IMG/VR virus record: IMGVR_UViG_2671181189_000007
Length of the DNA: 5,969 bases
From: a virus
Taxonomy: Duplodnaviria; Heunggongvirae; Uroviricota; Caudoviricetes
Strand: one strand, 5' to 3'
How positions within the stretch are numbered: the first letter of the stretch is position 1; every line of letters begins with the position of its first letter. The notes under the pieces are model-generated. The model was not told where the DNA came from and ran no database searches. It saw nothing but the letters and a program-made list of their open reading frames with translations. A program made the position numbers and the translations under genes. Of this stretch, positions 2,579 through 2,689 are shown one piece after another.

Positions 2579-2600
2579 AAAAAACCCGCCCGGAGGCGGG
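2579..2600 (-). terminator. Intrinsic terminator hairpin downstream of Q, strong on the minus strand, weak on the plus strand; candidate tR'-like late terminator
   Basis: Minus strand reads CCCGCC-TCCG-GGCGGG followed by TTTTTT (plus coords 2585..2600 stem-loop, 2579..2584 A-run). The plus strand has only TTT after the stem. Lies about 90 nt past the Q stop. Confidence 0.6.
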
Positions 2601-2689
2601 TTTAAGCTGTGTGGCGAAGCAACCACTCTTAACAGAATATCCCGTTTTTTACGTACGTAAAATATTTTCTAGAAAGTCGCCCCTTACCA
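2601..2689 (-). promoter_or_regulatory. Putative late promoter (pR'-like) and Q-utilisation region between the Q stop and the terminator
   Basis: Position only. Lambdoid late promoters sit immediately downstream of Q. The best sigma70-like match I can see is weak: TTTACG (2661..2656), 16-nt spacer, TATTCT (2639..2634). No promoter is established by sequence alone. Confidence 0.25.

Follow-up and report, generated by a model that had tools for sequence, protein, structure and literature searches.

The closest described relatives of the locus analysed here are the late-promoter regions of phage 21 and of phages 933W, Sp5 and Sp15. Q proteins of the Q21 family (PF06530) are distinct from those of the Q-lambda (PF03589) and Q82 (PF06323) families (Yin and Ebright). 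In the curated record of phage 21 (OL657228; Guo et al. 1991; Yin et al. 2019), the late promoter is annotated with a −35 element, the Q-binding subsites QBEu and QBEd (ATTGAGCA and AATGAGCA), a −10 element, the start, a sigma-dependent pause element (SDPE) and a terminator, behind which are two tRNA genes, the S21 holin gene and a SAR endolysin gene. For Sp5 and Sp15, dRNA-seq located the PR′ start and Term-seq the 3′ end of tR′, the two lying 258 nt apart (Sy, Lan and Tree 2020; PMC7547250); StxS is a 74-nt 3′ fragment of this 258-nt PR′ transcript and originates between the first hairpin and tR′ (PMC7547250).

The DNA analysed here (5,969 bp, referred to as the window) is the replication-to-lysis part of a lambdoid prophage, carried on the minus strand (Table 1). 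Located downstream of the Q gene is a segment, 2661–2579 on the minus strand, that we take with good confidence to be the late-gene regulatory cassette of a lambdoid prophage with a Q21-family Q, acting by the standard mechanism. This reading is based on the sequence features of the segment, its homology with 933W and Sp5, the conservation of a hairpin with a T-run among its relatives, and the match between Q clade and promoter palindrome. Downstream of the cassette and on the same strand are the lysis genes for the holin, the lysozyme and Rz (67–1915; Pfam matches PF04971 and PF00959), which an antiterminated transcript would reach.

The window is nearly identical to an E. coli prophage in NZ_CP011416 (here L001), from which it differs at 4 of 3,213 bases upstream of the masked gap and at 67 of 2,206 bases downstream of it. 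Nine complete E. coli genomes share the 213 nt spanning 2548–2760, which include the Q-to-terminator feature, at 100% identity. In L001 the equivalent of the gap contains a promoter-like TTTGCA-18-TATTAT (L001 3232–3261) and tRNAs with the anticodons CAT (Met by ARAGORN, Ile in RefSeq; Met/Ile2), TCT (Arg), TGT (Thr) and TCC (Gly). As the gap equivalent comprises 369 nt in L001 and the window has 341 N, the tRNA region of the window may differ slightly. The conserved segment just past the terminator (2548–2578) leads toward this tRNA promoter region and, in L001, runs on into TTTGCA-18-TATTAT.

Table 1. Features of the window and of the equivalent of its masked gap; positions relative to +1 refer to the predicted start.
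Feature	Position	Strand	Relative position, composition or context	Basis
DnaC-like gene	5000–5947	minus		
DnaB-like helicase gene	3612–5003	minus	followed by a small ORF	
ninH	3063–3263	minus		
Q, late-gene antiterminator, Q21 family	2690–3070	minus	126 aa	Pfam, PHROG, identity
Q-to-terminator feature	2579–2689	minus		
Putative Q-binding inverted repeat	2661–2648	minus	−34..−21; TTTACGTACGTAAA; A-run to 2645, element 2645–2661	
−35, TTTACG	2656–2661	minus	16-nt spacer	hexamer and spacing as in 933W pR′
−10, TATTCT	2634–2639	minus	−12..−7	from transferred start
Candidate sigma-dependent pause element 1, AAGAGT	2625–2630	minus	−3..+3	
Predicted start, A	2627	minus	+1	transfer of mapped Sp5 PR′ start
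Predicted constitutive short pR′ RNA	2579–2627	minus	~49 nt	transferred start and terminator position
Leader hairpin, GUGGU/GCCAC	2611–2626	minus	+2..+17; 6-nt loop	predicted fold
Candidate pause element 2, TGCTTC	2616–2621	minus	+7..+12; overlaps 933W 'qut'	
Intrinsic terminator	2579–2603	minus	9-bp stem, +25..+33 with +38..+46; UCCG loop; U6, +44..+49	
Post-terminator conserved segment	2548–2578	minus		aligned in phiP27, Stx2a_1447, PhiR40_1, cdtI
Masked N run	2207–2547		341 N	
Gap equivalent in L001	L001 3214–3582		tRNA promoter-like site and four tRNA genes	
Inverted repeat 1	2156–2166/2191–2201	minus	11-bp arms	
Inverted repeat 2	2076–2089/2135–2148	minus	14-bp arms	
S21-type holin	1700–1915	minus		Pfam match, L001 annotation
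ORF209	1067–1696	minus	209 aa; between holin and lysozyme	
Lysozyme	468–1001	minus		Pfam match, L001 annotation
Rz	67–486	minus		L001 annotation

Between the tRNA cluster and the holin gene is an interval (2076–2201, minus strand) that contains two perfect inverted repeats and folds as RNA to −48 kcal/mol (z = −4.5). Phage HK639 has a segment 75% similar to it in its late leader, flanked by annotated terminators, and in PhiR47_1 the block of tRNAs, structured segment and holin sits behind a different, longer Q. An RNA processing site and an additional transcription barrier are both possibilities for this structure. Within the lysis cassette, the 209-aa ORF (1067–1696) belongs to PHROG 1085, to which no function is assigned there, and had no match in the Pfam comparison; it is probably a moron. 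Past the left end of the window, after Rz, L001 carries a ParD-like antitoxin and RelE/ParE toxin pair (L001 5926–6213).

Upstream of the cassette, on the same strand of the same prophage, is the antiterminator gene Q. Its product matches Pfam PF06530 (E = 4e-54) and PHROG 79 ('anti-termination protein Q-like'), is 85% identical with Q933W over 125 residues and 33% identical with Q21 (E = 6e-13), and has PDB matches 6P18 and 6JNX. A phage-82-like system was considered and rejected on the same grounds, the Q of the window being PF06530 and not PF06323. The original prediction had proposed phage 82 as a comparator; because Q82 belongs to PF06323, it is not a relevant one. The pause of the 82 leader is at +25; the features of that leader described by Bird et al. 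(2016), GCC at +15–17 and an AT-rich +18–25, were looked for in the leader of the window and are absent from it. At its C-terminus Q933W carries an 18-aa extension that is absent from the Q of the window (933W record 706–1179 versus 2690–3070), owing to which the 933W coding sequence of Q covers the palindrome and the −35 region and stops 21 nt short of the transcription start; in the window, the distance from the end of Q to the start is 62 nt.

At the distal end of the cassette is a minus-strand hairpin, AAACCCGCC-UCCG-GGCGGGUUU followed by U6 (2603–2579). Its core is the one originally described, CCCGCC (2600–2595), a TCCG loop (2594–2591), GGCGGG (2590–2585) and T6 (2584–2579), and it begins 90 nt past the Q stop codon (2692–2690), matching the distance of about 90 nt given then. 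Three flanking A:U pairs lengthen the stem to 9 bp (2603–2595 with 2590–2582). The 30-nt hairpin has a predicted energy of −17.0 kcal/mol, compared with −6.0 ± 2.2 kcal/mol for shuffled sequences (z = −5.05, 0 of 200 as good). It is the sole site in the window, on either strand, found by a strict scan for a hairpin and T-run (perfect stem of at least 6 bp with at least 5 G/C, loop of 3–8, at least 6 T in the next 8); of 300 dinucleotide-shuffled versions of the window, 1.3% have a site of this kind. A general terminator scan of the window did not list the hairpin, probably because that scan appears to extend the stem via the A:U pairs into the T-run and then finds too few T in the tail. The further suggestion that the hairpin is weakly bidirectional is marginal at best, the plus-strand tail being only TTT before AAGC, and no plus-strand gene transcribing into it was identified in the window.

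By in silico evidence, a terminator is present between pR′ and the late genes. Because the weaker homologous hairpin of Sp5 (−12.6 kcal/mol) is read through in lysogens, the efficiency of termination at 2603–2579 is something we infer, and the first-position terminator of a 933W-type module is not necessarily efficient.

The stretch 2668–2579 shares 78% identity over 90 nt with 933W (E = 9e-16), and the matched part of 933W is the one that bears the GenBank annotations 'pR′ putative late promoter', 'qut' and 'possible rho-independent terminator'. On NC_002695.2, the Sakai coordinates given by Sy et al. (PMC7547250), which refer to an earlier genome version, fall within Q and featureless DNA. 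An offset of +142 accommodates both Sp5 ends: the start coincides with the A of gataag-A-gtgg and the 3′ end with the final U of the second terminator, at a separation of exactly 258 nt. Transferred to the window, the mapped Sp5 start falls on A2627, within the invariant TAAG-A-GTGG. At the corresponding distance upstream, the −10 position reads TAnnnT in nearly all variants of the module (TATCAT in 933W), with one group, CAGTAT, keeping the A and the T. The −35 hexamer matches the consensus at 4 of 6 positions, and TTTACG-16 nt-TATTCT at 8 of 12, which is under the threshold of the promoter scan; owing to this weak match, little was found here by the scan or by the original reading, whose report of only a weak sigma70-like match agrees with the count. 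Sigma70-dependent pR′ activity at 2661–2634 is predicted from these sequence features. Together, the 933W homology and the transfer of the Sp5 start support the proposal that a compact pR′-qut-tR′ unit lies between Q and the hairpin.

Transcription from A2627 to the terminator would yield an RNA of ~49 nt (AGUGGUUGCUUCGCCACACAGCUUAAACCCGCCUCCGGGCGGGUUUUUU), in line with the few tens of nucleotides originally expected. As late transcripts of this size are documented for the Q21 family, the length is not a novelty. The predicted fold of the RNA (−23.3 kcal/mol, z = −4.2) has two hairpins, one near the 5′ end at +2..+17 and that of the terminator at +25..+46, and the former is also predicted in most of 58 distinct leaders collected from relatives. 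An Rfam search returned no family at gathering score; sub-threshold plus-strand matches to the terminator hairpins of P9 and Hrs10 (E = 0.35 and 0.8) are at chance level. PhiR40_1 carries a hypothetical-protein annotation for a short ORF that begins with GTG and covers the leader; this ORF was rejected as coding, since it corresponds over the variants to 61 different peptides of 14 to more than 50 aa.

The module formed by promoter, leader and hairpin is present in 360 phage records and more than 120 viral contigs. A PF06530-like Q is encoded at most 5 kb upstream in 104 of 129 module copies, at 9–2,465 bp from the start, and in phiP27, Stx2a_1447, cdtI, Lambda_4C10, PhiR40_1 and DLP12 the module is separated from Q by unrelated genes, frequently encoded on the opposite strand. 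All 58 distinct leaders have a hairpin with a T-run, ending at +47..+61. The 5′ arm of the terminator is nearly invariant among the copies; in two divergent variants, however, the hairpin and T-run are built from unrelated sequences, which argues that termination itself is under selection. At least 17 DLP12-like copies (for example, ...GTCGAGCTGGTTTTTCC) have a mismatch in the terminator stem, only five T and an energy of about −6 kcal/mol, and these prophages probably have a defective first terminator.

Overlapping the −35 hexamer is an inverted repeat, which in the window takes the form TTTACGTACGTAAA. The window and the homologous positions in the other records (L002–L177) display at least seven discrete core types of this repeat. 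The palindromes extend from −34 to about −18 (ACGTACGT, ACGATCGT, ACAATCGT, GCGTACGC, GCGGTCCGC, GGAATTCC and GTTATAAC), each followed by an A-tract, and three of the types have the half-sites TTTAC and GTAAA in common around a variable 4-bp centre. Clustering of the Q proteins at 90% identity gives 16 clusters, every one of them paired with a single palindrome type (104 Q–module pairs), and the match between Q clade and palindrome is one-to-one even where 1–2.5 kb separate the two. One palindrome type per Q cluster is the pattern expected of a Q-binding element, and the inverted repeat at −34..−21 is the likely candidate for that element. Linkage instead of function could partly explain the association, and the inverted symmetry, where Q21 binds a direct repeat, is a point against the assignment.

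A more specific proposal has two parts, which we put forward jointly and tentatively, since we regard their combination as rather doubtful. In the first, Q proteins of the Q933W/QuuD branch would recognize a 14–16-bp inverted repeat over the −35 element, with clade-specific cores of 8–9 bp, and not a direct repeat; in the second, the almost invariant ~49-nt leader would owe its conservation to a separate function, as a multicopy prophage sRNA or in the loading of Q. In the Q-loading form of the second part, the pause element would overlap the start site.

Two candidates for the pause element lie near the 5′ end of the transcript. AAGAGT (−3..+3) is similar to the phage 21 SDPE, TAAGCT, and its spacing from the palindrome is close to the QBE–SDPE spacing of phage 21; the A at its second position and the T at its sixth are retained in 24 of 24 leader variants collected with the terminator-half anchor. 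Owing to its overlap with the start site, the assignment of this sequence as a pause element is uncertain. At the second candidate position (+7..+12), 933W has TACATT, where the GenBank 'qut' covers +8..+15, and relatives have TACTTC, TACTAC, CACTTC or TACTTT; the terminal T is usually missing, TACATT occurring in the 933W type only. Position 2620 of the window (+8) is a G, in place of the A seen in nearly all other variants. In the viral contigs collected, this G is confined to the leader type of the window (window and L001) and one further single-copy variant, and if +7..+12 were the pause element, the G would remove its key A.

In the preferred reading of the segment as a late-gene cassette, promoter activity, termination efficiency, the identities of the Q-binding and pause elements and the mechanism of Q are as we infer them. 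Host sigma70 RNA polymerase would initiate at pR′ (TTTACG, TATTCT, A2627) with or without Q. When Q is lacking, it would transcribe the leader with its small 5′ hairpin, stop at the terminator (+25..+49) and release the ~49-nt RNA. On induction, Q (2690–3070) would build up and bind its site in the promoter, most likely TTTACGTACGTAAA at −34..−21, and would load onto polymerase that has paused close to the promoter in a sigma-dependent manner. If Q acts as Q21 does, its nozzle on the RNA-exit channel would narrow the channel and block formation of the terminator hairpin. The Q-modified polymerase would then pass the terminator, the tRNA cluster and the structured leader and reach the holin, endolysin and Rz genes.

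Alternatively, the hairpin may be a leaky attenuator that a sizeable fraction of polymerases from pR′ passes without Q, with the lysis genes silenced by later barriers, for example, the repeats at 2076–2201. Lysogens of Sp5 make the 258-nt PR′ RNA that ends at the second terminator, the first hairpin being bypassed; hairpin energies among the leaders range from −5.7 to −16.7 kcal/mol, with stem mismatches in some common variants; and the RNA of the tRNA–holin interval is strongly structured. However, the copy in the window is in the strongest class, with its 9-bp stem, UCCG tetraloop, U6 and −17 kcal/mol, a second canonical terminator before the holin was not detected in the unmasked L001, and the documented terminator of phage 21 is the equivalent promoter-proximal one. 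We consider leakage on this scale possible, although the balance of these points makes it an unlikely account of the window's copy.

Another question is whether the ~49-nt RNA, besides being a by-product of antitermination, is a trans-acting, Hfq-dependent sRNA like StxS. From −6 to +33 the leader hardly varies between Q clades, although these share only 41–50% identity and have different palindromes. The first collection of modules was anchored on the 5′ leader, so that part of this invariance was imposed by the search pattern; in a repeat collection with an independent anchor in the terminator half, the leader was still nearly invariant. The RNA is also built like an sRNA, a single-stranded A/U-rich stretch linking the 5′ hairpin to a terminator hairpin that ends in U6, and StxS provides a precedent from the same promoter family (PMC7547250). 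However, the StxS-specific segment of 933W is missing here and Rfam gives no match, and the invariance could instead reflect constraints of Q loading or pausing, or a recombination linker between mosaic modules. On this evidence, a regulatory role in trans seems quite improbable. Two described RNAs were compared with the transcript. Identity with StxS was rejected, the StxS segment being missing from both the window and L001; for HnrS (EcOnc10-12), a multicopy prophage sRNA of 66 nt (PMC13502914), the difference in length, 66 against ~49 nt, argues against identity.

That the hairpin mainly ends the early rightward Q transcript, with the true late promoter elsewhere, for example, in the masked gap, is very improbable: the hairpin lies 90 nt past the Q stop, where it would stop non-antiterminated read-through of Q, and the gap of L001 has a promoter-like site, but in most relatives unrelated genes, often on the opposite strand, put 0.6–2.5 kb between Q and a module that nonetheless follows the Q clade, and the mapped Sp5 late start falls inside the module.

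The arrangement in the window is already known from phages 21 and 933W: in the preferred reading it is the ordinary late switch of a lambda-like E. coli prophage, a pR′ module of the 933W/QuuD type in the compact layout of phage 21; because such a switch is expected in a lambdoid prophage, the locus is of little importance in itself. What the comparison provides is the base-level anatomy (start, candidate Q site, leader and first terminator) of the promoter family that controls Shiga toxin 2. As the same family serves many E. coli prophage lysis cassettes, including that of DLP12 in K-12, the comparison may be of modest use. A module located kilobases from its Q gene can still match that Q, and the clade-specific candidate Q sites could predict which Q proteins cross-activate which prophages. 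Experiments might be worthwhile only on these clade-specific inverted repeats and on the invariant leader.

Among known systems, the promoter–leader–first-terminator module of 933W, Sp5 and Sp15 (NC_000924) is homologous to that of the window. In 933W, the −35 hexamer, the spacing, the flanks of the inverted repeat (TTTACG..CGTAAA) and the leader hairpin are the same, and a tRNA cluster with its own promoter follows, as in the relative of the window; the cluster comprises three tRNAs in 933W and four here. The first hairpin of 933W is weaker (−12.6 versus −17 kcal/mol in the window). 933W has in addition ~200 nt of leader and a second terminator, which defines the 258-nt StxS precursor, both absent from the window; comparison of this inter-terminator segment with the window and L001 gave only matches at E of 1 or more. 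Unlike Shiga-toxin phages, the prophage of the window has no stx genes in the window.

In the cryptic prophage DLP12 of E. coli K-12, the same module lies ~150 nt upstream of essD, and the Q homologue quuD is 2.9 kb upstream of the module, with nmpC and its IS5 insertion in between. Its leader is the GTCAC variant of the DLP12-like group, in which terminator hairpins are weaker or mismatched. In K-12 MG1655 the module is at NC_000913.3 577,225–577,245 (L180 4726–4746), where the record carries no annotation for it.

Comparison with phage 21, which the original prediction had proposed, reveals the same architecture. Common to both are the PF06530 family of Q and the order of elements, in which Q is followed by a promoter (predicted in the window) with a Q site upstream of the −10 element and a pause element at the start of the transcript (both candidates in the window), a terminator, tRNAs, an S21-type holin and an endolysin; the intrinsic terminator ends ~50 nt from the start, as in the window, and the lysis genes are of the S21 type. 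A DNA comparison of the two cassettes detected no similarity. The QBE of phage 21 consists of two 8-bp subsites in direct repeat (−27..−12), whereas the candidate in the window is an inverted repeat at −34..−21, and the phage 21 terminator hairpin covers almost the whole transcript, whereas the RNA of the window is predicted to form two separate hairpins. A further known system is the pR′-qut-6S RNA-tR′ region of lambda, in which the Q family is unrelated (PF03589), the terminated RNA measures 194 nt and the sequences are different. The logic predicted for the window is the same: a constitutive late promoter after Q contains a Q site and is followed by a sigma-dependent, promoter-proximal pause, and its short RNA is terminated unless Q lets the polymerase read through to the lysis genes.
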